A DNA stretch of 64,000 nucleotides from Candidatus Kapaibacterium sp. (GTDB lineage: Bacteria > Bacteroidota > Ignavibacteria > Kapaibacteriales > Kapaibacteriaceae), in contig JBGAJM010000002.1 in assembly GCA_044224925.1 (NCBI GenBank), positions 78,332-142,331 of the forward strand. The letters run 5' to 3'. The position numbers and the translations under genes were made by a program. Position 1 is the stretch's first letter. Every line of letters starts with the position of its first letter. This document shows positions 41,911 to 59,856 of this stretch, in pieces. A model generated the notes under the pieces. It did no database searches. It was given only the letters and a program-made list of their open reading frames with translations, and had not been told where the DNA came from.

Positions 41911-44247
41911 TTAATGGAGGACGGTCACGGCAACGGCTCCTGCCGGACCGTTCGCATCGAGGAGCAACACATACGGTCCGGTGGGTAGCATGGACACATC
42001 CACGCGGAACACATACCGTACCATGCCGCCTTCCTCCCGTGCCTCTATACTTGTTGCGCGCATCACTTCCCGTCGCACAGCATCCTCGACAATGAGCGTC
42101 GGAACGTCGCCTGGGCCGATGCGCACCACTTCGGTCTCAATGGTCGACGAGGAGGGATTGGGGAACGGTGCCATCATCTGATAGGTGGAACCGGCTCGGA
42201 TGACCGTGGTGGACACAGGGAGGCCGCATCGCGACGTGCCTGTGAGTGTTTCGACGAGGCCCGAGGTAAAGACAGGCACCGGAACATCTCTGCAAGTGTC
42301 GGGGATGATGATCGTATCGACGACCAGGCCCGACTCGATCGTAGAGCAACAGATACGAAGGGTCTTTGTATCAAGCGGAGCGATCACGATCGGGAACTGT
42401 CCTTGTGGCATGCTGCAACGGAGGTTCACGACCATGAACGGTCGCGAGATCACCAAGGGGCGCACGGTGTCGCGATTGCGGATCACGAGGTCCCTGCACG
42501 TCAGGTCGCCAACCGTAACGTCCGGTATCTGCAGTCCGGGGCCGATGTTCGCATTCTGCACATCGATCTGATTGCGAAGGTTGAGGACGACCACATCGAT
42601 ACGATTCGATGTGCCTGGGCATCCATATTCGTCGATGATATCGCAAAAGTAGGTGCCGGCACTTTTCACGGAGATCGACGGAGTGGTCTCCCCTGTGCTC
42701 CACCGATAGGACGTCATGCCTCGTGGAGCCACGAGCGTGACGGAATCGTCCAAACAGATCGTTGTTTTACCCGTGGCCGTGATCGTTGGTTCGAACAATG
42801 GTCGGATATCGGCAACAAAGGGTTTCGATCGTAGAACGCAGCCATTGGTGTCGGTGGCCGTTACCGTGACGGTGGCAGAGGCGCGCACGACGATGGCATC
42901 GGTAGTGTCGCCTGTCGACCAACGGAATGACCGATACGGTCCATTCGTCACGCGAAGCATGGCAGAATCGCCATAGCAATAGGTGGACCCGGAAAGTCCA
43001 TTCAGAATGAGCGGAGCAGTGGTCTGGAACACACGCAGCGTGATCGTATCGGCGGATGCCGTACACGTGAGCGTGTCGAAGGCGGTGATGATGTATCGGC
43101 CGGGCTTACTGGCGTATCGATCCGGTCCTGTGAGACCATCGGACCACTTGTATCGAAGCAGATCGGGCGTCGACGTGAGGAGAACGCTATCGCCCTGGCA
43201 CACATAGACAAGATCACCTTGGGCGATGGTAACGAGACGCGGACGTGCGTTGAAGTTCGACCGGTAGACCTCGGTGCCGACAACGAATCCCAGCGTATCG
43301 CTGACCATCCAGATGTCGTCCAAGTTCGAAGTGGCATCGATCCCACATGCACGAAGCTCCCATGTTCGACCTGCATCCGATGTGTAGTACACTTGCCGTT
43401 CGGAGCCCACGCCCCATCCGGCACGTTCACTTACGAGGAAGGTTCCATAGTTGGTAGAGGGCGTTCGAAAACGCGTCCACGAGGCTCCCATATCCGTCGA
43501 GAAACGGTACTCCCCTGTGACCAATCCGCCGCCGAAGCATTCGCTTCCCGCGCTGGGTACAAGGAACGATCTTCCGACGTGGGAGAGTTCTTCATTCCAG
43601 GTTCGAAAGCCGGACGTGGCAAACTCGTTCCATGTGCGACCGTAGTCATTGGTCGACCATATCATACCGCTCGACGCGGCGTATCCGCTTCCATCGCGAT
43701 ACAGGATCGCATCCGTGAGTCCGGTCCCGATATCGTTCGCTTCAAAGAACGACCACGTTGTCCCACCGTCGGTGGTCCGATAGAATCGAGGTGGTTCTTG
43801 GCAGCCGCCAACGAGATAGACGCCTTCATTCTGCGTCAAGAAGTAGCATCCCCATGGGTTATCGCCAGTGGGAATGTTCGGAGAGACGTTGAACCATGAG
43901 ATGCCACCGTTGTTGGATCGGAAGATCCCGCCTGGTCCGGACGTGTATCCCACGAGTGGTGTCAGGAATTGAATGCTCTCGAGGAACGGGTCACCATTGA
44001 TCCGGGTACCAAGCCACGTGGTCCCACCGTCAGTGGTCCTGATCACTCGGCCATCATCCGAGCAGACCCATCCATAGCGCGGATCGGCGGGCAAGAAGAA
44101 CACGTCCAGGTACATCACGTTCTCGCCGTATCCCGGAGGGAGCACACACTTCGTCCACTGTGCCTCCATAGGCACGGAAGCAAAGGCAAGCAGGCAGATC
44201 AGCGAGCAGATCGCCTGCAGAGCTGCAGAACGGAGTGGAGTGAACAA
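41911..44247 (-). CDS. secreted Asp-box/Ycf48-like beta-propeller plus Ig-like modules plus T9SS C-terminal domain
   Basis: 778 aa with a TTG start and signal peptide ...AFASVPMEAQ. Boxes TTDGGTTW, SNNGGISW, TTDGGTTW, TNDYGRTW, STDMGASW and SDAGRTW are present. Three Cys-framed modules follow (YKWSDG, FRWSTGDT, YRWSTGET). The CTD reads ...PFPNPSSSTIE...GPYVLLL. Confidence 0.75.
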   Translation of the reverse strand: MFTPLRSAALQAICSLICLLAFASVPMEAQWTKCVLPPGYGENVMYLDVFFLPADPRYGWVCSDDGRVIRTTDGGTTWLGTRINGDPFLESIQFLTPLVGYTSGPGGIFRSNNGGISWFNVSPNIPTGDNPWGCYFLTQNEGVYLVGGCQEPPRFYRTTDGGTTWSFFEANDIGTGLTDAILYRDGSGYAASSGMIWSTNDYGRTWNEFATSGFRTWNEELSHVGRSFLVPSAGSECFGGGLVTGEYRFSTDMGASWTRFRTPSTNYGTFLVSERAGWGVGSERQVYYTSDAGRTWELRACGIDATSNLDDIWMVSDTLGFVVGTEVYRSNFNARPRLVTIAQGDLVYVCQGDSVLLTSTPDLLRYKWSDGLTGPDRYASKPGRYIITAFDTLTCTASADTITLRVFQTTAPLILNGLSGSTYCYGDSAMLRVTNGPYRSFRWSTGDTTDAIVVRASATVTVTATDTNGCVLRSKPFVADIRPLFEPTITATGKTTICLDDSVTLVAPRGMTSYRWSTGETTPSISVKSAGTYFCDIIDEYGCPGTSNRIDVVVLNLRNQIDVQNANIGPGLQIPDVTVGDLTCRDLVIRNRDTVRPLVISRPFMVVNLRCSMPQGQFPIVIAPLDTKTLRICCSTIESGLVVDTIIIPDTCRDVPVPVFTSGLVETLTGTSRCGLPVSTTVIRAGSTYQMMAPFPNPSSSTIETEVVRIGPGDVPTLIVEDAVRREVMRATSIEAREEGGMVRYVFRVDVSMLPTGPYVLLLDANGPAGAVAVTVLH

Positions 44248-44270
44248 GGCGGTCAGTTGGTGACTCGTGC

Positions 44271-45098
44271 TTAGTGAACGATCAGGGCCCTCGACCGCAC
44301 GATGCGTCGATCGCTGATCAATGTGATCATATAGGCACCGGTGCGAGCCGGTATCCCTTCAGCCGTGCCGCCATCCCATTGAAAGATCCCATGGTCCGCT
44401 TCTGCGGTGACAGCACCTTCAAAAATACGCTGTCCTTGCATGTCCGTGACGGACACCTCGAAACGTTCTTGTGGCTCGGCAGAGAACTTCACGGTCACAA
44501 GGTTCGAGGAAGGCAGCGGGGTGGCAAGGCTTGTGAAGACGGGGATCGTGGTCTCGGCAACGTCGGTGGTCTTTTCTACAGTGATCTGGACCGGCGTCAT
44601 GTGATTCCAGAGGTCGTTCGCGTCTTCCCGGCCATTTCCATTCACGGCATTCCCCGTCGCCAGGAGATAGTAGGTTCCCGGAGTGGTCGGTGCCTTCCAC
44701 GAGAACGAGAAAGTTGACGTTCCGCTCGACATTGTCCTTGGTGAAGAGTGCGTGAGTTCCCCTCCGCTCAGGAACAGTCCAGGACCTGCAATAAGGGTCC
44801 CCGCATTGGTCTGTGCCGTCAGTGAAGACTTCACGGCAACGTTGATCCCGGCCCGTGTACGAGAGACGTGGGCGACGACAACGGAAAGCTGGATCGTCTC
44901 ACCGGGTTGCAACACGATCGGCTGTGTTGTTGAGAGTGAAACGGTTGTTGCAGAGCTCGCAGTAGAGCCGTGACAGCCACTGCCACCACAACCTTGTGAA
45001 GTAGGTAGGGTCCGTCCCACATACCCACTAGGATTAGCGTATAGGGAGGTGCTCGCCAGTGAGCAAAAGAGGACGAGCAAGAAGTACCGCAGTTGCAT
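44271..45098 (-). CDS. secreted protein of unknown function with CGGSGCHG motif and T9SS C-terminal domain
   Basis: 275 aa with signal peptide ...STSLYA. The mature N-terminus reads NPSGYVGRTLPTSQGCGGSGCHG. The C-terminal roughly 85 aa are CTD-like (...VTVKFSA...TGAYMITL...ALIVH). Confidence 0.62.
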   Translation of the reverse strand: MQLRYFLLVLFCSLASTSLYANPSGYVGRTLPTSQGCGGSGCHGSTASSATTVSLSTTQPIVLQPGETIQLSVVVAHVSRTRAGINVAVKSSLTAQTNAGTLIAGPGLFLSGGELTHSSPRTMSSGTSTFSFSWKAPTTPGTYYLLATGNAVNGNGREDANDLWNHMTPVQITVEKTTDVAETTIPVFTSLATPLPSSNLVTVKFSAEPQERFEVSVTDMQGQRIFEGAVTAEADHGIFQWDGGTAEGIPARTGAYMITLISDRRIVRSRALIVH

Positions 45099-45164
45099 AT
45101 CGATCGATCCGAAGGTGGTGAAGGATTGTTGGTATGATATCCCTGAGCGGAAAAGAGTTACCGC

Positions 45165-45197
45165 AAAAAGAAAGGGCGCACCGAAGTGCGCCCTTTC
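45165..45197 (-). terminator. rho-independent terminator of the giant ORF
   Basis: On the minus strand, GAAAGGGCGCAC-TTCG-GTGCGCCCTTTC forms a perfect 12-bp stem followed by TTTTT, 23 nt after the stop at 45220. Confidence 0.8.
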
Positions 45198-45219
45198 CTG
45201 TTACATGTCGGCGTATGTC

Positions 45220-48200
45220 TTATTGACGTACGAGACGGACTGTCCAGCGTTCGTTATTCGTGGTGACAACTACGTTGTACACACCAGAGGCGAGTTGACC
45301 CATGTCAACCGTGCTCTTGAATTGACCGCCTTGAGCCATATCGTTCACACTGAGGACCTTCTCACCAACCAAGTTGAAGAGTTCGATACGAACCGAACCT
45401 GCTTCGCTTGTGATGGCCGAAACCGTGAACATTCCGTTCGTTGGGTTCGGGAAGATCTCGAGACCGTTGGTGTGACCAGCTACAACGTCATAGTCCACAT
45501 CGGTGAGGATAACGTCGAATGGCTGAGACATCGACGAGCAAGTGTTGTCATCCATGATCTCGACACGATACGTACCAGGGAGAGCTACGATGAGCTTCTG
45601 ATTCGTTGCGCCTGTGATCATTGTGCCATTGCGATACCACTGATATGCATCAGCAACACTGGAGATGGCCTTCAGTGTATCACCAGTACGGTTGATGGTC
45701 GGACGAGCTGGCAGCAGGTTCACCTTGACATTCAGATCCGGCGAAGTGGCTTCGCAACGGGTGTTGTCTGTGACCGTGACAGTGTACTTACCACCATCTG
45801 TTACTGTGATCTCGCGAGTCGTAGCACCGTTTGACCAGTAGTACGACTTGAATCCTGTTGGCGCACTCAATGTGACCGCATTTCCTTCGCAGAAGGTGAG
45901 CGGACCATTTGCTGTGACAACCGGCGAGATAGCTGGCTTCAGTGTGATCTTCACGGTGTCGGATGTACCAACGCAACCGTTGATATCAACAACGCTTACC
46001 GTGATGTTGTCTGTTTGCTTCACAACGATCGTGCGAGCGGTGCCATAGTTCGTTCCAGCGGAGCTGGACCATGTATAGCTGTTGTAGCCTGCTGGCGCTG
46101 TGACGATCACAGAGTCGCCGCTACAAACCGTTGTCGAGCCGATCGTCGTAAGAACTGGCTGTGGCTTAGCATATACGATCACTTCAACCGGTGTGGATGT
46201 ACCTGTGCAGCCATTTGTGTCGGCAATAGCCACAGTGTATTCACCGGATGTTGTTACCGTGATCGAACGCGTTGTTGCGCCATTCGACCAGCGATAGATG
46301 CTGAAGCCTGCAGGAGCTGTCAGAGTAACGCTGCCACCTTCGCAGAATGTTCTTGGACCGCTTGCCGTGATGATCGGCAGTGTGGTTGGGAAGACATTCA
46401 CTTGGATGGAATCAGAGCTATTCGAGCAACCATTGTTGTCTGTTACTACGACCCAGTACAGACCAGTGCGGTTGGCAACGATGTTGCGACCCGTTTCACC
46501 AGTGTTCCAAGCGTAGGAAGCAAATCCAAGCGGTGCGGACAGTGTGACGTCGCCACCTTGGCAGAACGTCGTCGGTCCGCTTGCTGTGACGCGAGCCGTT
46601 GGAAGTTGATTGATCGTAACGTTCAGCGTGTTGAGTACTGTACAGTTGAAGGTATTACGCTCCGACACTGTAAGAGTACCGCCACCAGGCAACGTCCACT
46701 CAACTTGTACGTTCGGCGTGCCTTGACCACCGCGGATGATACCACCCGTGATCGTCCATGCATACGTGTTGCCCGGAACACCTGGTGTACCATACGATTG
46801 GATCGTGTTCTGGCAAACGCTGTTCGGTCCGGAGATCGAAGGCGTTGGGTTCGGGTTGATCGTTACGCTGATCGACGAAGTTGTCGAGCATCCGAAGATG
46901 TTCGTGTGTGTGAGCGTGACCGTTCCGTTTTGTGGAACCGTCGTCGTGTTGAACCACTGAACTCCGATCGAGGTCGTAGCATTCGATACGATCTGACCGT
47001 TGGAAGATACCGACCACGTGTACGTGGAGATAGCTGCCGGAGTCGACGTGATGTTCGACGAATACGTTGCCGTATTGATCGTTTGTGGCGTCGTGTTCAG
47101 GTTCGTTGCACAGACCGGGCTAGGACCAGTGATGATCGGAGCGTTCGGATTTGGGTTCACGGTGATCGCACGCGAGGTTGATGTCGCGCAGACCGGCGTT
47201 ACGCCAAGAACGGTTTCCGTTACAGCCACTGTACCAGGACCTGCTGCACCCCACTGAACAGTGATCGTGTTCGAACCACCACCGCTGATGATCGAACCGC
47301 CTGTTACCGTCCATACCCACGAGTTGCCAACAACGTTCGGTGTCGTGTACGTGTGAACAGAGTTCGCACATACGTTCGGCACACCTCCTGTAGCGCTCGT
47401 GATGTTTGGCGTTGGGATTGGCTTGATGATGATCGAATCCTTCACGGTCGTTACGCATGTAGAGCCAGGAACTGTTTCCGTGACCTGCACGCTTCCACCG
47501 GCGCCCGTGCTCCAAGTGACCGTGATCGAATTCGTGTTCTGACCACCGATGATCGTACCACCAGTGACAACCCAGTTCCAAACGTTGGCTGGTGTTGCGA
47601 ACGTCGTGTAGACGTGCGTGCTACCTGCGCAAACGAGACCTGGACGTTGCGATACTGGCGAACCATAACCGGTCGTGCTGCTGATGGATGGCGTTGGGAT
47701 CGGGTTGACCTGAACCTGACGCGTGACCGTCGTAGCACAACCACCACCGGATGCAGTTTCTGTCAGCGTGATCGTTTGGAGACCTGGCTGGATCCACTGT
47801 ACCGTGATGCTGTTCGACGTTGGGAAGCCTGCTACCGGAGCGAAGCTGTTCGAAGCGGAGATCGACCAGAGGTATGTGCTACCGGCAACGGCTGGTGTCG
47901 AATACGTTTGGATCGTATTCAAACATGCTACCGTGGAACCGGAGATCACAGGTGTTGGCGTATAGGTCACGTCAACATTCTGAACGACCGTGCGCGAGCA
48001 GTTCGTACCGGCTGTTGTCTCTGTGACGCGCAGTGTACCCGTACCGATGATGTTCCAAAGAACGTTCACCGTGTTGGTGTTGCTTGCGCCAGTGATCGAA
48101 CCGCCTGTGGCCAACCAAGCATACGTGTTGCCGGCGTTGTTCTGCGTGGAATACGCGATCGTTTGACCAACGCATGCCTTGCCAACATCGCCAACAGGTG

Positions 48201-51200
48201 TCGTACGAGCGATCGCCGTTGTCGTTGGTGTCTGACCGACGCTCACAACGAGGTTCGCTGTAGCGAAGCATCCACCAGGATTGCTTGTTTCGAGTACCGA
48301 CACTGTTGCGGAGCCTGCATTGTTCCAACGTACCGAGATGGTGTTGGATGCTGCGCCGGAAAGGATCGTACCGTTTGCAGATGGAGTGATGGTCCAAGCA
48401 TACGAGCTACCAGCAGCGTTGGCTGTTGTGTAGGACTCGATGTTGCCTGTACATGTCGTTGCATTGCCAGAGATACTTGGCGATGGCTGATACGTGACGC
48501 TTACGTTCTGTGTCGCTGTACGTGAGCAGTTCGTGCCGGCTGTTGTTTCAACAACGGTCAGCGTCTGATTGCCAAGTACGTTCCACGTTACGTTCACTAC
48601 GCTGATGTTCACACCGTTGCTTGCTCCGACGAATGTACCGCCTGTCACCGACCATACATATGTATTGCCAGGTGTATTAGGTGTCGTGTATCCAACCGTC
48701 GAACCAGCACATGCTTGTGCAAGTGGCGAACCACTTGAACGAGTGATCGCTGTGAGTGTTGGCGTTTGACCAACGGTAACATTCAGTGTTGCCGAAGCGA
48801 AGCATCCACCGGCCGTAGCTGTTTCGAGTACCGATACCGTTTGTGGGCCGTTTGCGGTCCAACGAACAGTGATCGAGTTCGAACCGGCACCGGTCAAGAT
48901 CGTACCACCTGCAGAGACCGTCCATGCATAGGTGTCGCCGGCAACGTTACCCGTCGAATACGTTTCCGTATTGCCGGTACATGTTGTAGCTGCACCAGAG
49001 ATGCTTGGCGTTGGCTGATAGGTGACGTTCACAAGTTGTGTTGCTGTCTTCGAGCAGTTCGTACCGGCGGTCGTTTCTACAACCGTCAGTGTTTGCGTGC
49101 CCACAACATTCCATACAACGTTGACCGTATTGACGTTCACACCCGAGTTCGAACCCGAGAACGAACCGCCAGTAACTGTCCATGCATAGTTGTTGCCTGC
49201 GGTCAGTGTCGTTGCATATGTGATGGTCGAACCAACACATGCGCTTCCGATCGGACCAGCAGGGACAAGACGAAGGATGGCCGTTGCCGTAGGCGTTTGA
49301 CCAACCGTCACGTTCAGTGTTGCTGTTGCAGAGCAGTTACCGTTCGTTTCAACCACTTGAACCGTACGTGCACCTGCACCTGTCCAGTTCACCGTGATCG
49401 TGTTCGAAGCGGCACCGCTCAAGATCGTACCACCACCGGAAGGCAGTGTCCATGCATAGGTGCTACCGGCAACGTTACCCGTTGTGTACGTATCCGTGTT
49501 GGTCGTACATGTGGTCGCATTACCAGAGATGCTTGGAGTTGGCTGATAGGTGACGCTGACGTTCAATGTCGACAGACCCGTGCAGCTTGCGTTCAAGCCG
49601 TTGGTTTCTGTGACCGTCAGTGTCTGATTACCTACCGAAGTCCATTGTACAGTGACGATGTTCGATGAACCACCTGCTGTGATCGTACCACCTGTGACAG
49701 TCCACAAGAAGTTCGAACCGGCGTTGTTCGGGATCTGATACTGGATCGTGGAGTTATTACATGCCTGATTCAATGGCGAACCCGTTACGCGGGTGATCGC
49801 TGGAGATACTGGCTTGTAATAGACACTAACGTTCAGGTTGGCTGTTGCAGAGCAACCGCTCAACGTGTTCGTTTCCGTTACCGACAGTGTTGCAGGGTTC
49901 ACAACGTTCGGGAGTGGATTGTTCCACGTGACCGTACATGCGTTCGTAGCAGCACCGGCAGTGATGACACCGTTTGTTGGAAGCGACCAAGCGTAGGTGT
50001 TACCAGCAACGAATTGCGTGGAGTACGTTACGACGGACAATCCGCAAACTGTGTTCGGACCGTTGATCGATGGAGTTGGAGGACCAGCAACGGTGACGTT
50101 CTGGCTGACCGTTGTTGTGCACTGCGTTGCCGTTACCCACTCGTTGAGTGTCACAGAACCGTTACCAACAACTGTCCAATTCACGTTGATCGACGAAGTA
50201 CCTTGACCGGAGACGATCGTGCCATTTACTGCAGACCAGTTATAGCTGCGACCGGCGACGATCGGAGATACGGTGTATGTGACCGTTTGATTGAGGCAAG
50301 CGCCGCCAACGGTACCGCCAGCCGGAGCTGTGCGTGTGATCGTTGGTGTTGGAGCTGTCACGATCGTTACGGTCTTCGATGCAGACTTCGAGCAGTTCGT
50401 TGCAAGGATCGTTTCCGTCACAGTTACTGTGAAGGATCCGGCAACTGTCGTTTGAACAGTTGCACTTGCTGTGTTCGCGCCATTGGTAATGGAAGCATTA
50501 CCGATAACGGACCACGAGAAGGAGCTCGAAGGAGCATTGTTCTGTGTTGTGTATGTGTAAGCACGATTGTCACAGACGGCGTCCGGACCGTTCACCACAG
50601 GTGTCGGTGTTGGATTGACCGTGACGAAGCGAGTTGTCGTGTTCTGGCAACCTGCAGCGCTTACTTGTCTGAGCTTGACATAGGCATTGTTGTTCGGCGT
50701 ATCAAGCCAGTTGACCGTGATCGATGTGAGCGACAGACCGCTGCGTGTTGCAGGGCTTGCGATCGTACCGAGACCGGCACCGCTGGTGATAAGACCGCCA
50801 ACAACTTCCCAGTTGTACGTGTCTGTTGGATAGACATCAGCGGTGTAGATCACACCAGCTTGATTCTGGCAAACGCTGATCGGACCATTGACAACAGGTT
50901 GTGGCAATGGATAGACCGTTTCATTGAAGGTGTACGTGGTCGAGCAACCGCCGAGACCGGCAGGAAGCGTCACAACGCAAGTCACAACTCCAATGTTCGT
51001 TCCACCAGTAGTGTTCCATTCAGCAACGATGGAGTTCGTGTTCTGACCCGAACGGATAACACCGCTCACAGCACCGGTTGGCATGGTCCACAGGAACGTC
51101 GTGTTCACTGGGAAGACGCAAGACACAGGGCGATTGAGTGTGTACGTTTCGAGGTGAGACTCGAAGCCACCGTAGATACAGGCTTGGCTATTTCCGTCAG

Positions 51201-54200
51201 CCGATGTGATCGCAGCGTCTGCGATCGTCGGATTGACAGTGATCGTACGTGTAGTTGTATCAGCGCAAGCAAACGCGTTTGTCTCAATAAGACGGATCGT
51301 CGCTGTAACTGGGTTGTACACACCATTGCAGCTGAGGTTGTTGACGCCCCATGCAACGTTCAATGGATTGAGCGTACCAAGACCTGTATTGTTTGCCACC
51401 GTCGGTGTCGTGCCAGCAGGTGCGCCTGTGATCAACCAGTCATACGTGGTTGTTGCAGGAACAGCACTTGGACCGGCTGTGTACACTTGATTCGATGGAC
51501 CGCAAACTGTCGTCGCACCAGTGATGTTCGCAACTGGCTTCGGATTGACCGTGACAGCTGTGGCTCCAAAGACGAATGGACAGTTGCTTGCTGGTGTCGG
51601 ACGTGCATACACACCACCGCCAACCGTACGAAGACGAGCGCGAACGTCGAAGTTCACGACTGTTGGAGCAGCAGGGTTCGATGCAAGGACGGAGAGCTTC
51701 GGAATCCATACGGAAACCGGACCACCACCAACTGCACCTTGTACTTCAACGACTGGTGCCATTGAGAGTCCGTTACGACGGATCTCATATGTCACGCCAT
51801 CTTGTGTGCCCGTAAGTGTTACGAGAACATCTTGGTTCCAGCATGTTGGGTTAGCCGTGAAGGAAACAACTTGCGCTGCCGGCAGAGCGAAGACGCGTGT
51901 TGTGACCGTTGTGGGCATGACCGTCGTACATGGGATGTTCGGAGGAGGAGCAAGCGTCATATCCGTAACGCCTGTAACCTGATACTCATAGTTGTCAGCG
52001 TTCAGCAGTGGGTTACCACCGGCAGGGAACGTAGCATCTGTAAGCGTGATCGTACCACCATTGCCGGCAAGTGTCGACGATGGGATGGATACGAATGCAC
52101 CAGGAACGATCGGATTACCCGCGAAGTCGCGGATCTGACGGCGACCCAATGTGTACAGCACCCATGTCTCTGAACTTGGGACGTTGACTTGGATTCCAGT
52201 GAGATCACCTTGGCACGAGAGTGTCGTGACAATAGCTGGTGTTACCACTGCTGGTTGTGGGTTAACGAAGATCTGAGCGTTTGGCGTAACGACATACCAT
52301 CCGCAGTTCACGGCTGGTGTACCGAACGTACCATTCGTTTGCGCTGTGACGCGGAAACGATAGTCCGTTACGTTTGGAGCAACTGCTGTGTAGGCAAGCA
52401 CCGAAGCTGGGATGTTCCAAGCAAGTGCTGCACCCGAACCGGCTTGCGTAGCAACTGCACCTGGAGCCGACCAAGTAGCACCGGCATTTGTCGATACTTC
52501 AAGACGATAGGTATAACCGGCTTGCGAACTTCCTTGTGTAAGGAGAGCTGTCGAACCGGCACAGATGTTCTGTGGCGTAACACCGATCGTTTGTGCGAGC
52601 GGGATCACGTTCAGCGTCACGTTGTAGTCAAGCGTCGTTGTCTGGCATGAAGGCGGCGAAACCGGACCGTTCAATTCAGATACCTTGATCTTACCTGGCG
52701 TCGAACCATACCATGCAACGCGTACTTGCGAAGCACCAAGGATGGCCGAAACACCTGTCGTTGTTGTTGCAGCGATCGGAGTCCATGTACCACCACTGTT
52801 CGTCGAGTAGGCTACGATGTAACCGTTCGACGAGGTCCAGGAGTAGTAGTGACCTGCCACCAGTGGTGTCGAGTAGACGTTCGAACTAGCGAACGTGAAC
52901 GGACCGGCTGGCGTGAGGGCAGGATCTGTGAGTTCTTGACAGGCCGTGTTCGGACCGGAGATCACAGGTGTCGGATTTGCTTCGATGGTAAGGGTGATCG
53001 TGTTCGAGCGTGTACAGCCGTTTCCGTCTGTTGCCGTTACAGTGATGACCTTTGTTCCTACACCACCAAAGTTGTTGATCGTGAATCGATCGTTGATCGG
53101 AGCACCGGCAGGAACGTCAGATTGTACGCCTGTCAAACCACCTGTGCTAGACCATGCGAACGATACGATACCGGCACCGGAAGTGCTCGTTACGTCCAAG
53201 AATGGGAATGGCGACGAAACGCAGAACGTTGTGATGTTCGGAGTGATCGTGATCACTGGAACGGTCGGCAATGCGTTGATCGTGACATTCGTTGTCGTGA
53301 CACCGCTTACGCAGGCGCCATTTTGTGTTTGATACTGGAACGAACCAGCACCACCCGTTGGGACAAGTCCCCACGAGATCGTGATGTTGCCGAGGGCACC
53401 AGAGAAGTTGTTGGCGCCGACGATCGTACCGTTCGTAACACTTGTTACTGTGGTTGTCAAACCGGCCGTACCGTTCAACGTGTAGACGACCGTGGCACCT
53501 GCGCAAGGCGTAAGCGTACCGGCGTTATACGTTGGAGCAGCTGGCGTTTGTGTGACGTTGACGTTGTAGGTCAGCGTTGTCGTACAGTTCGAAGGTGCTG
53601 GACCAGTGATCACGTCTTGGATCGTGACAACACCCGTTCCCGAGTTGTTGTAGTTCACCGTGAAGGTTGGCGTAGCAGCTCCTGCAGAGCTCGCTACGAA
53701 TCCGATACCTGCTGTGATCGACCATGCATGTGCCGAGATCGGACCACCAACGGTGTTGTTCACAACCGTGTAGTTCTGATTGAGTGCACCACCGCAGACC
53801 GCATTTGGTCCGCTGATGTTGCCGTTCGGACGTGGTACGATCGTGATCGTATACGTCTCAACAGCCGAGCAACCTGCAAGGTTCGCATACTCATGGCTGA
53901 TCGAGCCTGTTGTACCTGCACCCCATGTAACTGTGAAGTTACCGAGACCGGCAAACGATGTCGTCGAAGCCGTGAAGGCACCTGACGAGGCCGTGATCGT
54001 ACCACCAATGATATTGAAGGTGTGGTTGTCCGCACCCAACGTCACTGTGTATACGTTAAGGGTCGAGTTCGCACAAGGATTCGTACCAGGCGCAATGCCA
54101 GGTCCGGTAAGTGTGAACGCTGCTGCATTTGGAGTTGCTTGAACCGTCAAGTTGAACGTGCTGGTACCGGAGCAGCTGTACGTTGCAGGTGTTACTTCCG

Positions 54201-56562
54201 TAACAACTACCGTCGCAGCACCCGTATTTGGCCACTGGACGATCACTTGCGTGATGCCAACACCATTGACGGAGTTCGTAGGAGCTACAGCACCAAAGTT
54301 CGTTGCAACGATCTGACCACCATTGTTCACCGTCCATGTATACGTGTTCAGTGCGTTTGGAACGTTCACTGTGTACGAGAACTGGAGCGGGTTCGGTGTC
54401 GTCTGATACGTTGGGTTCGTTCCGGATGGCGCGATGAACTGACATGGCGTGTTCGAACCATTCACAACAGGAGCCGGGTTGGCTTGAACTGTTTGCGTCA
54501 GGTTGTGTGTATACGCTACCGAGCAACCGGCACCGGTCGTCTCAGTGATCGTGATCGACTTAGAGCCTGGTGAGAGCCATGAGATCACCATCGACGTCTT
54601 GTTCAACGTTGGCGTACCGGGGATGTATGCCGCATCTGCACCGGCGAACGTGCCGCCTGCGCTGAGCGTCCATGCGTACGAGTTACCAACCACACCACCA
54701 ACAACACTATAGGTTACATTCTGACCTACACACGGCGTTGCATCGCCTTCCGTCAATGGAAGCTTTGCGACCGGCATTGGGTTCACCGTGATCGCATACG
54801 TGATCGGACCCGAAGAGCAAAGTGCTCCAGGACCGGTCGTGGCGATCAATTGAAGTGTAGCAACAACCGGAGCAGATGGCTGCTGCAGTGTTCCCCATGT
54901 GATGTTCGTGTTCGAACCGCTCGGTGCCGTCACTGCAGATCCTGCAGGAGCACCGGAGAGGGTCCAGTTATACGTAATGCCGGCACCTGCACCACTGAAT
55001 GTGTATGGTCCCGAAGAACCGGTAGCACATTGTGGCGTTGGACCAGCAATAACGCCGGATGGCGTCAAGAAGATCGTGATCGTTTTGTTGCTCGTGACCG
55101 AACAGTTTGTCGGTGCAGGTCCAATTTCTTGGGCCGAGACATTCCAGTTCGAACCACCGAGTGTACCGCCACCAGGGAAGTTGATCGAAGCGCTCAAGTT
55201 CTGACCGCCCGATGGAGTGACGATGGCACCAGGTGCCGTCGTGGCCCAAAGGAACGTAGAACCTGGTACTGTAGCAGCTACTGTGAAGTTCTGTGTTGAA
55301 CCTTGACAAAGATTCGTTGGGCCACCGATCGTCTGGGCCACTGGCACAAGGTTGACCGTGATCACTTGAACATTGCTACGGATCTGCTCACAGTTACTAC
55401 CGAACTGAACGATGGCAGCATACCGCGTGGTAGCCGAGATCGCCGTTGCCGGGAGAAGAACTGGTGAGCCACCAACAATGGCATTCACATAGGAGTCGTC
55501 ACCTTGAGCAGCACCGTTGATATCGTAGGTATCGATGATACCGTTCGTTCCAACGTTGACAAGTCGAGCTGAATATGCTTGCGGACCACCGGCAACCGGA
55601 TCCCATGTCCAGGCTGTGTTCATCACACCACCGTTGGCAACTGCCGGACCACCGACTGGAACCTGACCGTTCGCCCATGTTGCATTATTATGTGCACCAG
55701 GAGCAATGGCGGGGTAGGCAGGAGCATTGCCGCACAAGTTCTCGATACCAATGGTGTGGTTACGTGCAGGGATGACGCCTGGATCAGGGAAGTCCTGAAG
55801 GCGTACTTCGATGCGGTTTGGCGTAAGAGCGTGCGTCGAACCGTACAGGATGACCTGAACAGTTACTTGATTGTATGGGTAGACAAGATTCGGATTGTAT
55901 TGCGACACTCCACGGAACGTGACAACGAGAGCGTTGTTCACTGCACCGACACCGTTCACCGGCTGAATGTCCCAATCCACATCGTCAGCGGCCTGTGGGT
56001 CGATGTCGATGTTGAGGAAGTAGATCGCATGGTTCGGACCAGCAGCGGCTGGGATGTTCTGAGCCACGATCCCCGTCTCTGTGAGTTCGTTGTTGTTCAA
56101 CGGATTGCCATCGCTGAAGCGAATGAATCCGTTCGAACTCACATAGATACCTTCTGCGGCAAGGTTGTGCGTCGATCCGTAATAGACAAAGTCGAAGCCA
56201 CCGGCTTCCTCTGCCGTGATCTCAGCCGCCGTGATGAGTCGAACTTCGTCAGCACCGAAGGGGTTACCTACGACGTTGATGTTGTTCGCATTCCCGGCGC
56301 CGCCCTCTTCGGCCTCGAGGCCGGGCCAAGCCGGATTGGCCACATTATATGTGGTGATTGCAGGTATTCCCGCAACGGCTAATGTCAACGTCGGCGCAGT
56401 CCCGGAGCATACTACCCCTGGTACATGCGATAACGTTGCCGTTTGGGCAACACCCGCAGACACGCCGACTGTCAACAATACAAGGAAGGTCGCGAGCAGG
56501 CTTCGCCAGCTTAGCGCCCCTTGATGTTGACGGAACGTTGTCGCGGAATCAGAACGATTCAT
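45220..56562 (-). CDS. giant (3780 aa) repetitive cell-surface protein: NIDO-like N-terminal region, dozens of Ig/PKD-like modules, T9SS C-terminal sorting domain
   Basis: A single uninterrupted frame. The ATG at 56562 is preceded by GGAGG with a 5-nt spacer, then a signal-like SLLATFLVLLTVGVSAGVAQ. The C-terminus LEIFPNPTNGMFTV...GVYNVVVTT...VRLVRQ is a classical T9SS CTD. Confidence 0.85.
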   Translation of the reverse strand: MNRSDSATTFRQHQGALSWRSLLATFLVLLTVGVSAGVAQTATLSHVPGVVCSGTAPTLTLAVAGIPAITTYNVANPAWPGLEAEEGGAGNANNINVVGNPFGADEVRLITAAEITAEEAGGFDFVYYGSTHNLAAEGIYVSSNGFIRFSDGNPLNNNELTETGIVAQNIPAAAGPNHAIYFLNIDIDPQAADDVDWDIQPVNGVGAVNNALVVTFRGVSQYNPNLVYPYNQVTVQVILYGSTHALTPNRIEVRLQDFPDPGVIPARNHTIGIENLCGNAPAYPAIAPGAHNNATWANGQVPVGGPAVANGGVMNTAWTWDPVAGGPQAYSARLVNVGTNGIIDTYDINGAAQGDDSYVNAIVGGSPVLLPATAISATTRYAAIVQFGSNCEQIRSNVQVITVNLVPVAQTIGGPTNLCQGSTQNFTVAATVPGSTFLWATTAPGAIVTPSGGQNLSASINFPGGGTLGGSNWNVSAQEIGPAPTNCSVTSNKTITIFLTPSGVIAGPTPQCATGSSGPYTFSGAGAGITYNWTLSGAPAGSAVTAPSGSNTNITWGTLQQPSAPVVATLQLIATTGPGALCSSGPITYAITVNPMPVAKLPLTEGDATPCVGQNVTYSVVGGVVGNSYAWTLSAGGTFAGADAAYIPGTPTLNKTSMVISWLSPGSKSITITETTGAGCSVAYTHNLTQTVQANPAPVVNGSNTPCQFIAPSGTNPTYQTTPNPLQFSYTVNVPNALNTYTWTVNNGGQIVATNFGAVAPTNSVNGVGITQVIVQWPNTGAATVVVTEVTPATYSCSGTSTFNLTVQATPNAAAFTLTGPGIAPGTNPCANSTLNVYTVTLGADNHTFNIIGGTITASSGAFTASTTSFAGLGNFTVTWGAGTTGSISHEYANLAGCSAVETYTITIVPRPNGNISGPNAVCGGALNQNYTVVNNTVGGPISAHAWSITAGIGFVASSAGAATPTFTVNYNNSGTGVVTIQDVITGPAPSNCTTTLTYNVNVTQTPAAPTYNAGTLTPCAGATVVYTLNGTAGLTTTVTSVTNGTIVGANNFSGALGNITISWGLVPTGGAGSFQYQTQNGACVSGVTTTNVTINALPTVPVITITPNITTFCVSSPFPFLDVTSTSGAGIVSFAWSSTGGLTGVQSDVPAGAPINDRFTINNFGGVGTKVITVTATDGNGCTRSNTITLTIEANPTPVISGPNTACQELTDPALTPAGPFTFASSNVYSTPLVAGHYYSWTSSNGYIVAYSTNSGGTWTPIAATTTTGVSAILGASQVRVAWYGSTPGKIKVSELNGPVSPPSCQTTTLDYNVTLNVIPLAQTIGVTPQNICAGSTALLTQGSSQAGYTYRLEVSTNAGATWSAPGAVATQAGSGAALAWNIPASVLAYTAVAPNVTDYRFRVTAQTNGTFGTPAVNCGWYVVTPNAQIFVNPQPAVVTPAIVTTLSCQGDLTGIQVNVPSSETWVLYTLGRRQIRDFAGNPIVPGAFVSIPSSTLAGNGGTITLTDATFPAGGNPLLNADNYEYQVTGVTDMTLAPPPNIPCTTVMPTTVTTRVFALPAAQVVSFTANPTCWNQDVLVTLTGTQDGVTYEIRRNGLSMAPVVEVQGAVGGGPVSVWIPKLSVLASNPAAPTVVNFDVRARLRTVGGGVYARPTPASNCPFVFGATAVTVNPKPVANITGATTVCGPSNQVYTAGPSAVPATTTYDWLITGAPAGTTPTVANNTGLGTLNPLNVAWGVNNLSCNGVYNPVTATIRLIETNAFACADTTTRTITVNPTIADAAITSADGNSQACIYGGFESHLETYTLNRPVSCVFPVNTTFLWTMPTGAVSGVIRSGQNTNSIVAEWNTTGGTNIGVVTCVVTLPAGLGGCSTTYTFNETVYPLPQPVVNGPISVCQNQAGVIYTADVYPTDTYNWEVVGGLITSGAGLGTIASPATRSGLSLTSITVNWLDTPNNNAYVKLRQVSAAGCQNTTTRFVTVNPTPTPVVNGPDAVCDNRAYTYTTQNNAPSSSFSWSVIGNASITNGANTASATVQTTVAGSFTVTVTETILATNCSKSASKTVTIVTAPTPTITRTAPAGGTVGGACLNQTVTYTVSPIVAGRSYNWSAVNGTIVSGQGTSSINVNWTVVGNGSVTLNEWVTATQCTTTVSQNVTVAGPPTPSINGPNTVCGLSVVTYSTQFVAGNTYAWSLPTNGVITAGAATNACTVTWNNPLPNVVNPATLSVTETNTLSGCSATANLNVSVYYKPVSPAITRVTGSPLNQACNNSTIQYQIPNNAGSNFLWTVTGGTITAGGSSNIVTVQWTSVGNQTLTVTETNGLNASCTGLSTLNVSVTYQPTPSISGNATTCTTNTDTYTTGNVAGSTYAWTLPSGGGTILSGAASNTITVNWTGAGARTVQVVETNGNCSATATLNVTVGQTPTATAILRLVPAGPIGSACVGSTITYATTLTAGNNYAWTVTGGSFSGSNSGVNVNTVNVVWNVVGTQTLTVVETTAGTNCSKTATQLVNVTYQPTPSISGAATTCTGNTETYSTGNVAGDTYAWTVSAGGTILTGAGSNSITVRWTANGPQTVSVLETATAGGCFASATLNVTVGQTPTLTAITRSSGSPLAQACAGSTVGYTTPNTPGNTYVWSVTGGTFVGASNGVNISVVNVTWNVLGNQTLTVVETTAGTNCSRTATQNVSVTYQPSPSISGNATTCTGNIESYTTANAAGSSYAWTITPSANGTILSGAASNTISVRWNNAGSATVSVLETSNPGGCFATANLVVSVGQTPTTTAIARTTPVGDVGKACVGQTIAYSTQNNAGNTYAWLATGGSITGASNTNTVNVLWNIIGTGTLRVTETTAGTNCSRTVVQNVDVTYTPTPVISGSTVACLNTIQTYSTPAVAGSTYLWSISASNSFAPVAGFPTSNSITVQWIQPGLQTITLTETASGGGCATTVTRQVQVNPIPTPSISSTTGYGSPVSQRPGLVCAGSTHVYTTFATPANVWNWVVTGGTIIGGQNTNSITVTWSTGAGGSVQVTETVPGSTCVTTVKDSIIIKPIPTPNITSATGGVPNVCANSVHTYTTPNVVGNSWVWTVTGGSIISGGGSNTITVQWGAAGPGTVAVTETVLGVTPVCATSTSRAITVNPNPNAPIITGPSPVCATNLNTTPQTINTATYSSNITSTPAAISTYTWSVSSNGQIVSNATTSIGVQWFNTTTVPQNGTVTLTHTNIFGCSTTSSISVTINPNPTPSISGPNSVCQNTIQSYGTPGVPGNTYAWTITGGIIRGGQGTPNVQVEWTLPGGGTLTVSERNTFNCTVLNTLNVTINQLPTARVTASGPTTFCQGGDVTLSAPLGFASYAWNTGETGRNIVANRTGLYWVVVTDNNGCSNSSDSIQVNVFPTTLPIITASGPRTFCEGGSVTLTAPAGFSIYRWSNGATTRSITVTTSGEYTVAIADTNGCTGTSTPVEVIVYAKPQPVLTTIGSTTVCSGDSVIVTAPAGYNSYTWSSSAGTNYGTARTIVVKQTDNITVSVVDINGCVGTSDTVKITLKPAISPVVTANGPLTFCEGNAVTLSAPTGFKSYYWSNGATTREITVTDGGKYTVTVTDNTRCEATSPDLNVKVNLLPARPTINRTGDTLKAISSVADAYQWYRNGTMITGATNQKLIVALPGTYRVEIMDDNTCSSMSQPFDVILTDVDYDVVAGHTNGLEIFPNPTNGMFTVSAITSEAGSVRIELFNLVGEKVLSVNDMAQGGQFKSTVDMGQLASGVYNVVVTTNNERWTVRLVRQ
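45700..55350 (-). repeat. coding tandem array of about 80-95-aa Ig/PKD-like modules inside the giant ORF
   Basis: The recurring pattern is ...C.G....Y.V....GS.Y.W.V.GG.I..G.G...I.V.W...G...V.V.E.....C.......V.V.P.P.I.G.... The last roughly 900 bp switch to the C.GGSVTL.AP.GF..Y.WSNG.T module. Confidence 0.75.
47938..49551 (-). repeat. exact 528-bp (176-codon) two-domain super-repeat, three full periods
   Basis: Codons for TY(Q/T)P(T/S)P(S/V)ISG occur at 47938-47967, 48466-48495, 48994-49023 and 49522-49551, each spaced exactly 528 bp. The intervening DNA is visibly alignable. Confidence 0.85.
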
Positions 56563-56567
56563 ACGAT

Positions 56568-56572
56568 CCTCC
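56568..56572 (-). promoter_or_regulatory. Shine-Dalgarno (GGAGG) of the giant ORF
   Basis: The minus strand reads GGAGGatcgtATG. Most other starts in the window lack such a purine tract. Confidence 0.6.
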
Positions 56573-57072
56573 GATGAAGTGTAACGATATATGGTTGTTT
56601 CGCTGACATGTTGATCCGATGGAACGACCGGAAACACGAATAGGCGCTCTTTGCGCCTTGTGTTCCCCGTCGGTGAAGTAGTTGCGTCCAGAAATTCAGT
56701 CCAATCGTACAGTGTTTTCATGCGCCCCTCACTTGTCGTTTGTGAAAAACACAAAACGACGCACGGCATCCCCACACGGGAATTCCGCTCGTAAAATTCG
56801 CGCCGCTAAAATATCGCTGCATGGAGTGATAACCAAACGGTTTTTTGGCACAGCCACCACCATGAACGCCTCCTGAAATGACCAAACAACGTGATTCACT
56901 GTGGAAAAAACACCACAGTGCCAACCCTTACCGATCTGCGTCGCGCGGAAGCTGACAATGTCTGCTCCACTGCGCCACACCCGCCGAAGCCGTTCAAAGC
57001 CGCCATTCAGCGTCATCCAGTGGTGGACAACGGGCCAATGGGACTTGTTCGGCAGAAGTCTGTTGTCAACTG

Positions 57073-58080
57073 TCATGCCAAGTTTTCCGACCTGGCCTTT
57101 TCAACGTAGCCCCAGAGTCTCTGAATGAGTTCGTCTATCCCTTCGCGACTCACGGCCGAGATGATCTTCGCACCCTTGCGCTTCACGATGGGCCGTTTCG
57201 CTAACTCCTTGCGTTCTTCCGGAGTTAGGACGTCGGCACGGGTCAGGTACACAAGAGATTCGCGCTTTGCAAGCGTGGGATCGTAGGCCTTGAGTTCCTT
57301 TCGCAGGGTGGCGAGGTCGCTCTCTGGGTCCGGACTCTGCGAATCGATCATGAAGACGAGGACCGAAGTACGCTCGATGTGACGTAAGAACTGAATTCCC
57401 AAGCCTTTACCGAGGTGCGCCCCTTCAATGAGCCCGGGTATGTCCGCTACAGTGTAGCTACGACTTTCACCCGCCCGTACCATGCCAAGATTCGGCACCA
57501 AGGTGGTGAAGTGATAGTCGGCGATCTTGGGCTTTGCGGCCGAGATGCTGGCGATCAGTGTTGACTTCCCAACATTCGGAAATCCAACAAGTCCAACATC
57601 TGCAAGGAGTTTCAGCTCAAGTTCCAAGTCCAGCTCGTCGCCCGGACGTCCCGGCTCCGCATTCCGCGGAGCTTGGTTCGTGGCCGTGGTGAACTCGGAG
57701 TTCCCCTTGCCGCCTCGCCCTCCATACGCAACGATGTAGGTCGCCCCATCGGCCTCGAGGTCCACAAGCTGTTCTCCGGACTCTTTGTTTCGTACCACGG
57801 TGCCAGTGGGGACGCGGATGATCACGTCCTCGCCGGACCTGCCGGTGCAGTTGCTGCTGCCGCCGGGCTGCCCGTTCCTGGCCTCGTAGATGCGCTTGTA
57901 GGTGAAATCGAGCAGGGTGCCGAGCTGATGGTCGGCCTTGATGACGATGTTCCCACCCTTGCCGCCATTCCCCCCATCGGGTCCGCCCAATGGAACGTAC
58001 TTCTCACGTCGGAAACTGACAATTCCGTTACCTCCGTCGCCAGCCTTGACGTGGATCGATGCTACATCTATGAAATTCAT
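57073..58080 (-). CDS. obg: GTPase ObgE/CgtA
   Basis: 335 aa with MNFIDVASIHVKAGDGGNG, the Gly-rich Obg fold, and G motifs GFPNVGKST and DIPGLIEGA. Confidence 0.95.
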   Translation of the reverse strand: MNFIDVASIHVKAGDGGNGIVSFRREKYVPLGGPDGGNGGKGGNIVIKADHQLGTLLDFTYKRIYEARNGQPGGSSNCTGRSGEDVIIRVPTGTVVRNKESGEQLVDLEADGATYIVAYGGRGGKGNSEFTTATNQAPRNAEPGRPGDELDLELELKLLADVGLVGFPNVGKSTLIASISAAKPKIADYHFTTLVPNLGMVRAGESRSYTVADIPGLIEGAHLGKGLGIQFLRHIERTSVLVFMIDSQSPDPESDLATLRKELKAYDPTLAKRESLVYLTRADVLTPEERKELAKRPIVKRKGAKIISAVSREGIDELIQRLWGYVEKARSENLA

Positions 58081-58084
58081 TGGG

Positions 58085-59418: not shown

Positions 59419-59856
59419 TCAGTAGCCCGCTACTCCGCGTGCGGTCTGGGTGGGTTGGACGGTTTTCTTGACCCGTGCCTCCACCTTTTTCATGATCACG
59501 GGATCGATCGGTGTGGCCTCGGCAGGGGGCGTCACTTCACTGGGGATCACGAGCGACGGCACCGTTGGCACTTCATAGTTGGCCGGGATCTGTACCGGCT
59601 GTAGCTGGACATAGACGAAGTAGGCGATCGTACCCAGAACCCCTACGCCAAGCGAGCCAAAGAGAAGCGCCCGCATGCGACGCATTTGACGGCCTTGACG
59701 GATGATGATGTTCTCGAAGGACTCCGGAAGCACCACTTCCGGTAGTCGATTTAACGCCGCAAGGGCAAGGACAGCCTTTTCGAACTCATCCGTTGCTCGA
59801 ACTTGAGGGAGGTGCTCTCGTAAGAACGAGTCGCGGTCGAACGTGGGTGTGTTCAT
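59419..59856 (-). CDS. putative anti-sigma factor (single-pass membrane protein)
   Basis: 145 aa with one TM helix (LLFGSLGVGVLGTIAYFVYV). The start overlaps the ECF sigma stop as ATGA. The call rests on position and topology only. Confidence 0.5.
   Translation of the reverse strand: MNTPTFDRDSFLREHLPQVRATDEFEKAVLALAALNRLPEVVLPESFENIIIRQGRQMRRMRALLFGSLGVGVLGTIAYFVYVQLQPVQIPANYEVPTVPSLVIPSEVTPPAEATPIDPVIMKKVEARVKKTVQPTQTARGVAGY

Follow-up and report, generated by a model that had tools for sequence, protein, structure and literature searches.

What does a single open reading frame (ORF) of 11.3 kb encode in an uncultured Kapaibacterium, and what would the cell do with its product? We address this question for a 64,000-nt stretch of Candidatus Kapaibacterium sp. 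(contig JBGAJM010000002.1, positions 78,332 to 142,331), which we call the window and from whose first letter all positions below are counted. A first-pass annotation, made from the letters of this DNA alone, had reported one uninterrupted ORF for 3,780 aa at 45220-56562; this is exact, and the strand, which it had left unstated, is the minus strand. The ORF comprises 3,780 codons and a stop, with zero internal stops, from the ATG at 56562-56560 to the TAA at 45220-45222, and the maximal open frame in the ORF list reaches 56775 on the same strand. By arithmetic from base composition (GC 56.8%), a run of 3,780 stop-free codons has a chance probability of about 1e-60. The gene is intact, under strong purifying selection and not an assembly artefact, and it is clearly transcribed in situ. 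Its product belongs to the familiar class of giant immunoglobulin (Ig)-repeat type IX secretion system (T9SS) cargo, and on balance we consider it to be a fibrillar adhesin-like surface filament, exported through Sec and the T9SS, about 150 nm long and with a head at its distal end.

Tandem Repeats Finder detected no DNA array in the gene, so nothing in it is long and identical enough for repeats to collapse. An orthologue in an independent metagenome-assembled genome (MAG), the species representative "Bacteroidetes bacterium SZAS-90" (locus L001), on which we found no literature, is colinear with residues 1-3739 of the window protein at 96.0% amino acid and 92.6% nucleotide identity, with three gapped residues. 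The ratio of nonsynonymous to synonymous substitution rates (dN/dS) against this orthologue is 0.087 overall and 0.04-0.19 per region, but 0.47 in the last 49 aligned codons of the C-terminal sorting domain (CTD). Contigs from a bioreactor metagenome show zero differences over positions 44000-45901, 45998-54194 and 54223-58200 of the window; metagenome depth is flat at 9.5x, and the DNA runs contain no indels or joints. The organism lives in activated sludge and in bioreactor flocs. Sludge, activated sludge, soil and sediment are the sources of 24 RNA-type runs that contain k-mers of the gene, 9-40% of them in each run; most of these runs are labelled metatranscriptomic. RNA contigs within the gene reach 4,937 nt, and in ribosomal-RNA-depleted libraries the flanking genes have near-zero depth.

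The layout of the gene and its product, from the start codon to the terminator, is as follows.

45220 to 56562, minus strand: coding sequence of the giant protein, beginning at the ATG preceded by GGAGGA.
56446 to 56562, minus strand: signal peptide, residues 1-39, with an n-region carrying R3, R11 and R20, a hydrophobic core at 21-38 and predicted cleavage between A39 and Q40.
55345 to 56445, minus strand: head region, residues 40-406 (366 aa).
53260 to 55344, minus strand: stalk modules M1-M7, residues 407-1101, divergent and PKD_6-like, all seven found by a self-trained model (see below).
51541 to 53259, minus strand: atypical block M8-M12, residues 1102-1674.
46600 to 51540, minus strand: stalk modules M13-M30, residues 1675-3321, of PKD_6 type.
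47962 to 49545, minus strand: two-module super-repeat M20-M25, with a period of 528 nt.
45478 to 46599, minus strand: Ig_7 modules M31-M34 (residues 3322-3618) and a degenerate Ig-like module (residues 3619-3695).
45223 to 45477, minus strand: T9SS type A C-terminal sorting domain, residues 3696-3780.
45164 to 45199, minus strand: intrinsic terminator with a 14-bp stem, a UUCG loop and a U5 tail, beginning 20 nt past the stop.

T, V, G, A, N and S are abundant in the protein, which has 76 Cys, only 6% charged residues and 82 N-x-S/T sequons; the computed mass of the mature chain is about 381 kDa and its pI about 5. The signal peptide recognized in the first-pass annotation was judged here by inspection, from its basic n-region, its 18-residue core and the small residues at -3/-1, and AlphaFold 2 (AF2) predicts a helix at residues 19-31 in this region. 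Thirteen orthologous loci keep the start codon and the motif M[NT][RS]F[DG]S at the N-terminus, and in all orthologues (13 compared) the cleavage-site pattern, A or S followed by Q, is conserved. An N-terminal Q after cleavage agrees with the Q-rule of the Bacteroidetes (PMC5837995).

Residues 1-406 are without repeats, and residues 407-3321 form 30 modules with a two-Cys frame and "Y.W.V.GG.I" motifs, in which Cys1 is followed after 58-98 residues by Cys2 and then, after 25-36 residues, by the next Cys1. Cutting the protein along this frame gives 34 modules, and with one degenerate Ig-like unit ahead of the CTD, BiPBP_C-like in the Pfam search, this makes about 35 Ig-like modules, nearly all of which hold the conserved Cys pair. 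The dozens of Cys-framed, PKD-like modules described from the letters are thus borne out by the 30 modules counted here and by PKD_6 of Pfam, which matches in 11 stretches above its gathering score (242.6 bits, E 3e-73). The described switch of module type near the C-terminus is also real: the "Y.WSNG.T" modules at residues 3322-3618 match Ig_7 (PF19081) in four stretches, again above the gathering score (51.5 bits, E 1.3e-13). A hidden Markov model (HMM) trained on 15 core stalk modules of the protein itself detects 26 of the 30 stalk modules, missing M8 and M10-M12. Most of M15-M30 reach 77-101 bits with it, whereas M13, M14 and M29 stay at 16-22 bits. Module-to-module identity is mostly 20-45%, the exception being the super-repeat, where M20, M22 and M24 share 68-73% and M21, M23 and M25 share 55-61%, with DNA copies at 67-81%. 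In the atypical block, M8 (1102-1195) is Ig_7-like, M9 (1196-1321) is PKD_6-like with an insert, and M10-M12 (1322-1674) are unclassified beta modules with a Cys spacing of 86-95. The block has no Pfam match at E<=1, and a word-indexed protein search with M9-M13 returned no matches; it is kept in the orthologues P0004 and P0001 at 37-53% identity. Searched with phmmer against the PDB, the whole protein has a sole match, GhpA of Aureispira sp. CCB-QB1 (9flp and others; E 2.5e-74, 13 stretches). Six modules alone still reach E 1.2e-16 against GhpA, and the best GhpA match falls on the Ig_7 block.

The C-terminal sorting domain was checked against CTD HMMs, a test proposed in the first-pass annotation, and matches both Por_Secre_tail (PF18962; residues 3703-3774, 45.8 bits, cut-off 27) and the NCBIfam model of the type A T9SS sorting domain (TIGR04183; 34.4 bits, cut-off 23). 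A type B CTD (TIGR04131 or CHU_C, PF13585) was found neither in NCBIfam nor, at E<=1, in Pfam on the last 171 aa. Downstream of the stop, the perfect 12-bp-stem terminator noticed earlier is confirmed at 45168-45199 and consists of 12 perfect pairs (GAAAGGGCGCAC/GUGCGCCCUUUC) and two further pairs, with a folding energy of -30.5 kcal/mol (z -5.7) that none of 200 shuffles equalled; a generic terminator scan had overlooked it. Inverted repeats of the invertible-promoter type were not found.

The first 400 or so residues had been described simply as non-repetitive. This holds for residues 1-406, but the region is more than that: beyond the signal peptide it is a head domain that recurs among T9SS cargo. 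From its N-terminal side the head comprises a small beta unit (40-99, with Cys52), then the conserved core domain (100-310) and finally a beta-sandwich (311-406, with Cys391). It has no Pfam family at E<=1, a word-indexed protein search with it found nothing, and an exhaustive phmmer search with residues 1-405 gave only ten matches among 1.84 billion representative proteins. Scanning one genome per species with the most conserved motif of the head profile yielded 160 confirmed head relatives, mostly in the Bacteroidota. The domain stands N-terminally in many shorter proteins with T9SS-tail-like ends from Flavobacteriales, Saprospiraceae and Chitinophagales, such as P0007, which within 466 aa combines head, PKD and Por_Secre_tail. 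We read the head as a discrete and autonomous module that the T9SS would bring to the surface. Aligning the family with four remote relatives brings out a core of about 200 aa, in which F123, F125, G129, N144, G145, F146, F149, G164, N177, D186, P189, F216, G272 and E274 are invariant.

Modelled from the alignment, AF2 gives an all-beta head in three parts (predicted local distance difference test, pLDDT, 75.7; predicted template-modelling score, pTM, 0.77); from the single sequence the pLDDT is only 30. Foldseek searches of the model against the PDB and BFVD gave noise only (E>0.03, template-modelling score <0.3), probably hampered by the three-domain query, and a profile search of the head against the PDB gave no credible match. 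One lead is a resemblance to nidogen-like domains. The remote relatives P0008-P0010 share the motif F.F.FYG...SNGF[IL].F...D[LI]DP and reach 16.7-19.9 bits against NIDO (PF06119; cut-off 25), at profile positions 2-57 of 186 only; the window protein itself has no NIDO match at E<=1, and a literature search on bacterial NIDO domains found none. We therefore treat this resemblance as a weak lead and not as membership.

Among the 160 head relatives are about a dozen giant orthologues, with lengths of 2,500-3,800 aa or more. The best four phmmer matches measure 2,910-3,744 aa; the three complete ones share with the window protein the N-terminus MNRxDSA..., the Ig_7 block and the C-terminal ...RWTVRLVRQ, and the fourth, P0002, lacks its C-terminus. 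Conservation among the orthologues is highest in the Ig_7 block (51-79%), the CTD (56-68%), module M26 and the head core (52-56%), and lowest in the distal stalk M1-M8 (29-47%). P0002, from locus L003, has at least five nearly identical two-module units (HRQPTVPVITRTSPAGNANQAC...) and ends at a contig edge. It represents a recent expansion of the stalk, for which repeat collapse is a real risk in that assembly, and its near-identical units indicate that stalk length changes through duplication of two-module units.

The genomic position of the gene is equally stable. The order RadA-(extracytoplasmic function, ECF, sigma factor)-orf429-Obg-giant gene is kept in 13 further loci, with the giant gene directly downstream of obg. 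Where the locus is long enough, it continues with a choice-of-anchor V protein, a BNR protein and PaaB/A/D; the downstream order of the window (choice-of-anchor V protein, BNR protein, paaBACD) recurs in L081 and L010. Obg is 98% identical to that of the window in L001 and 59-69% identical in 12 distant loci; queries for exact copies of the giant protein and of Obg returned no record in the collection searched. Fixed synteny together with this divergence of Obg marks the giant gene as part of the vertically inherited core of a deep lineage and not of an island. The MAG labels of the loci include Candidatus Kapaibacteriota, Ignavibacteria and Melioribacter. Four loci (L006-L009) are labelled "uncultured Hyphomicrobiales" or "Bradyrhizobiaceae" despite an identical RadA-orf429-Obg-giant order, and L009 additionally has the T9SS-tail ending of the family. 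Since the synteny is identical, these are probably mis-binned or mislabelled contigs of Kapabacteria/Ignavibacteria-like organisms.

About 300 nt upstream of the giant gene are likewise conserved, in 14 loci (L001-L010, L017, L018, L022 and L081; region 56563-56838 of the window, minus strand). The elements of this region are the following.

56806 to 56837, minus strand: promoter-like element, with TTTGG at 56833-56837, a spacer of 19-20 nt and TATTTTAG at 56806-56813; kept in all 14 loci.
56722 to 56805, minus strand: 5' untranslated leader of about 84 nt, with hairpins H1 (56763-56788) and H2 (56735-56760).
56563 to 56721, minus strand: in-frame upstream extension of 53 codons from a conserved ATG at 56721-56719 (3,833 aa in total), holding a GGCGC-N5-GCGCC hairpin at 56643-56657 that reads RRKER in frame.
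56567 to 56572, minus strand: Shine-Dalgarno-like GGAGGA, 4 nt before the ATG at 56562, which encodes the E-D of "SEDR" if the upstream frame is read.

The family form of the promoter-like element, TTTGG, 19-20 nt and TATTTTnG, agrees with the published Bacteroidota consensus (-33 TTTG and -7 TAnnTTTG). RNA contigs span the leader; neither their 5' end nor the start of transcription is visible in them. Individual folds place H1 and H2 at the same position in all lineages, with differing arm sequences. A covariance model of H1-H2 (R1) finds one match per family locus, including two loci outside its training set, and no other matches in 1.46 Mb. The covariation is modest: 66% of cells are paired versus 62% in shuffles, 4 of 500 shuffles reach the score, and slid controls score lower. 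Folding energy of the whole leader barely beats shuffles (mean z -1.3), so we make no claim of a globally structured RNA; from a MAFFT alignment, RNAalifold rebuilt the leader hairpins only in part. Rfam gave no match in the window at gathering thresholds and none in the leader at E<=1. An ORF of 115 codons at 56729-57076 on the minus strand overlaps the promoter and leader; it has no family match, no such ORF is called in L081, and it is probably not a gene.

After the hairpins follow, in this order, an invariant ATGA, an invariant GGCGC-N5-GCGCC and an invariant ..GGAGGATCGTATG. The upstream ATG is in frame with the ATG at 56562 in 14 of 14 loci, at a distance of 159-192 nt that is always a multiple of three. 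The sub-segments vary in length (58/64/67/70 nt and 80/83/86/92/95/98/113 nt) with every indel a multiple of three. None of the 14 loci has a stop in this frame, whereas the other frames have stops. The 53-64 encoded residues keep the motifs M..[RL]Y, [RG]R.[ERGK]R[LPQ]..F and [SL]EDR-M, and the rest drifts. The dN/dS of the extension is 0.4-0.9, with no third-position excess, and GC by codon position does not distinguish coding from non-coding sequence here; ESPR and other Pfam or signal-extension families gave no match to it. Judging from the conservation of the frame, translation very probably covers 56563-56721 as well, in the frame of the giant ORF. This suggests an extended pre-sequence of about 92 aa, a translated leader or one of two alternative starts; the mature protein would be the same with either start, because signal peptidase would cut between A39 and Q40 both ways. 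Reading GGCGC-N5-GCGCC plus GTTT as an attenuator hairpin was considered and left unsettled, since the frame analysis shows that RR.ER..VF is encoded.

The strong Shine-Dalgarno sequence of the first-pass annotation is present as the GGAGGA 4 nt before the ATG. What had been missed is its setting, inside a conserved open frame that begins 159 nt upstream, and its singularity: GGAGG precedes the putative start in none of 12 other window genes (obg, radA, polA, thrS, bacA and others), these starts being longest-ORF calls of which some may be misassigned. Bacteroidota generally make little use of Shine-Dalgarno sequences. All 14 loci keep the GGAGG unchanged, including those in which the residues encoded there vary.

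Several neighbouring genes bear on secretion. The gene directly downstream (44271-45098, minus strand), which keeps its place beside the giant gene in L010 and L081, has a 275-aa product that carries a signal peptide, a CGGSGCH motif and a choice-of-anchor V domain (110.9 bits). This protein has a type A CTD (TIGR04183; 23.7 bits, cut-off 23), which indicates that the organism makes further T9SS cargo. Next to it (41911-44247, minus strand) is a gene for a secreted-looking 778-aa BNR/Ycf48-like propeller with Ig_7, and at 34560-38069 on the plus strand one for a secreted-looking 1,169-aa protein with Ig_7; both proteins have weak CTD-like C-termini (E 0.03-0.1 with a local CTD profile). The neighbourhood of the giant gene is probably rich in T9SS cargo; we found no literature on T9SS cargo of Kapabacteria. 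At a distance of 33 kb, positions 10809-12347 on the minus strand encode a 512-aa protein with a PD40 beta-propeller and an OmpA-like part, which scores 218.8 bits with T9SS_PorE (cut-off 600) and 228.5 bits with the CHU_0125 OmpA-like model (cut-off 620) and is possibly a PorE-like accessory protein of the T9SS. Three genes upstream of the giant gene, 59419-60452 (minus strand) encodes an ECF sigma factor and, after it, a membrane protein of 145 aa with a single pass, probably its anti-sigma factor; the sigma factor is kept in 8 of 13 syntenic loci, and a regulatory link with the giant gene is possible. Elsewhere the window encodes two ATPases of the AAA_16, STAND (signal transduction ATPases with numerous domains) type, at 20435-22717 (minus strand) and 27934-29913 (plus strand), one with tetratricopeptide repeats and one partly similar to TOMM kinase/cyclase fusion proteins.

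How would such a protein reach the surface, and what would it do there? In the scheme we favour, the pre-protein would cross the inner membrane through Sec and be cut between A39 and Q40, and the modules are predicted to fold and form disulfides in the periplasm, inside one module or between adjacent ones, as in GhpA. The CTD would then be recognized by the T9SS translocon and the folded chain translocated; the translocon accepts folded cargo (bioRxiv 10.1101/2024.01.29.577165). A PorU-type sortase would remove the CTD and replace it with a lipopolysaccharide anchor, as in other type A cargo, leaving the C-terminus at the outer membrane and holding the N-terminal head about 150 nm out, a length scaled from the 240 nm of GhpA and from the rise of an Ig domain, typically about 4 nm. 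There the head would bind a ligand, be it another cell, the floc matrix or a polysaccharide. Stalk length would evolve through duplicated two-module units, and the conserved 5' leader with its in-frame upstream ATG would probably tune synthesis or membrane targeting of this giant cargo.

Several observations weigh against this scheme. The genes gldK/L/M/N, sprA, porV and porU are all absent from the 64-kb window, the part of the genome examined. The head matches no catalogued adhesive domain and no structure, and ligand binding is suggested by the architecture alone. Type A cargo may be released into the medium rather than anchored. The depth of RNA contigs is a crude measure of expression, and some of the RNA libraries may hold DNA. 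Finally, such strong purifying selection and fixed synteny over a class-level divergence are unusual for adhesins and point to a more central role, possibly structural or related to motility.

Release is the basis of the rival that survives best, in which the chain of 380 kDa, once freed of its CTD, would pass into the medium and act there as a scaffold for the matrix of flocs or biofilms, not as a filament anchored to the cell. Many type A cargo proteins of Flavobacteria are soluble after secretion, the organism inhabits activated sludge and bioreactor flocs, and a chain rich in T, N, S and G, with 6% charged residues and 82 sequons, is compatible with a glycosylated matrix polymer. We nevertheless hold this to be unlikely, given the polarity of head, stalk and anchor: the best conserved parts, the Ig_7 block proximal to the cell and the CTD, favour a defined basal attachment.

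More speculative, and in our view improbable, is that the protein is a subunit of a core, lineage-defining surface organelle of an uncultured Kapabacteria/Ignavibacteria-like clade. Such an organelle would be of GhpA type, possibly oligomeric and equipped with a new head domain, and its production would be controlled through an undescribed conserved 5' leader, with two hairpins in the untranslated region and a 53-64-codon frame that runs into the main ORF and ends in an invariant GGAGG-ATG, in a genome apparently without Shine-Dalgarno use otherwise. For a giant T9SS cargo, that frame could serve as a dual-start switch or as an extended pre-sequence.

A closer equivalence to GhpA itself would make several copies of the protein line up side by side as a multimeric rod, rigid and hollow. 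As a "grappling hook", this rod would catch cells in a predatory or cell-capturing lifestyle, beyond simple adhesion. GhpA is a T9SS cargo of 5,898 aa that forms heptameric rods of 240 nm, with an N-terminal hook of about 1,400 aa; its stem consists of 52 Ig-like repeats and carries disulfides and O-glycans, and homologues of PorP (ghpB) and PorE (ghpC) lie downstream of its gene (bioRxiv 10.1101/2024.01.29.577165). Both proteins have a Sec signal peptide, an N-terminal distal module, an Ig-like stem containing Cys and a sorting domain at the C-terminus. No other homologue has a solved structure, GhpA shares the PKD_6/Ig_7-like disulfide modules, and the strong conservation, fixed synteny and high RNA signal in situ suit a core organelle better than a variable adhesin. 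The likeness, however, is confined to the stalk modules: the 366-aa head is unrelated to the hook, a search of the PDB with the head profile at E<=10 returned no GhpA match, and nothing in the protein matches the 1,400-aa hook. The window protein also differs in its 3,780 aa and about 35 modules; its CTD is of type A and not of the PorP-partnered kind. Homologues of ghpB and ghpC are absent beside the gene, where obg and the choice-of-anchor V protein stand instead, and the window contains no genes of a type VI secretion system. We regard a GhpA-type appendage as quite improbable.

Still less probable, to a degree that we call remote, is the SprB-like reading, which the first-pass annotation had named beside an adhesin-like one; the filament would here be a motility adhesin propelled on a moving track along the surface to drive gliding. 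SprB of Flavobacterium johnsoniae, with 6,497 aa (bioRxiv 10.1101/2024.01.29.577165), is likewise a very large, repeat-built T9SS cargo at the surface with Ig repeats and a core gene of its lineage. Its three defining features nevertheless fail here. The modules are not SprB repeats, as the first reading had itself remarked: PF13573 has no match at E<=0.01 across the whole protein. The type B CTD is missing, and no gene of the sprF/porP family adjoins the giant gene, which has obg and a cytoplasmic-looking 429-aa ORF upstream and the choice-of-anchor V protein downstream; gld genes are also absent from the window. The nearest characterized relative is GhpA and not SprB. Last, the worry that the gene is an assembly chimera, a collapsed repeat or a decaying pseudogene, raised only for its repetitiveness, is as good as refuted by the divergent repeats, the colinear independent assembly L001, the flat depth without indels or joints, the dN/dS of 0.087 and the transcripts.

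Giant Ig-repeat T9SS cargo is common in Bacteroidota genomes, and to our knowledge roles are known only for SprB and GhpA. What lifts the present gene above the routine is its obg-linked fixity and constraint, its RNA signal in situ, an unnamed recurrent head domain and the conserved in-frame leader. Should the filament serve in attachment to flocs or in the capture of prey, it would open a way into the ecology of bacteria that abound in wastewater. The leader lends itself to testing how a cell begins and targets translation when the secretion substrate measures 380 kDa.

Two further systems invite comparison. The first concerns the leader. ESPR (PF13018) is a conserved N-terminal extension before the signal peptide of very large adhesins secreted by type V systems, and the possible extension of 53-64 aa ahead of a normal signal peptide in all 14 orthologues is like it. 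The two differ in that there is no sequence similarity, that the extension drifts almost neutrally save for three motifs, and that it contains an internal conserved GGAGG-ATG; given the latter, it could represent a second start or a translated leader instead of part of one signal peptide.

The second comparison concerns the whole protein and the filament reading that we favour. Fibrillar adhesins usually evolve fast. The window protein departs from that class in its uncatalogued head and in its far stronger conservation (dN/dS 0.087, fixed synteny), and agrees with it in its tandem Ig-like stalk, its terminal non-repeat domain and its Por_Secre_tail anchor (Monzon et al.; PMC8286594). Por_Secre_tail is listed among the anchor domains of fibrillar adhesin-like proteins, and the survey counted 124 such proteins anchored by it, mostly from Bacteroidetes (PMC8286594).

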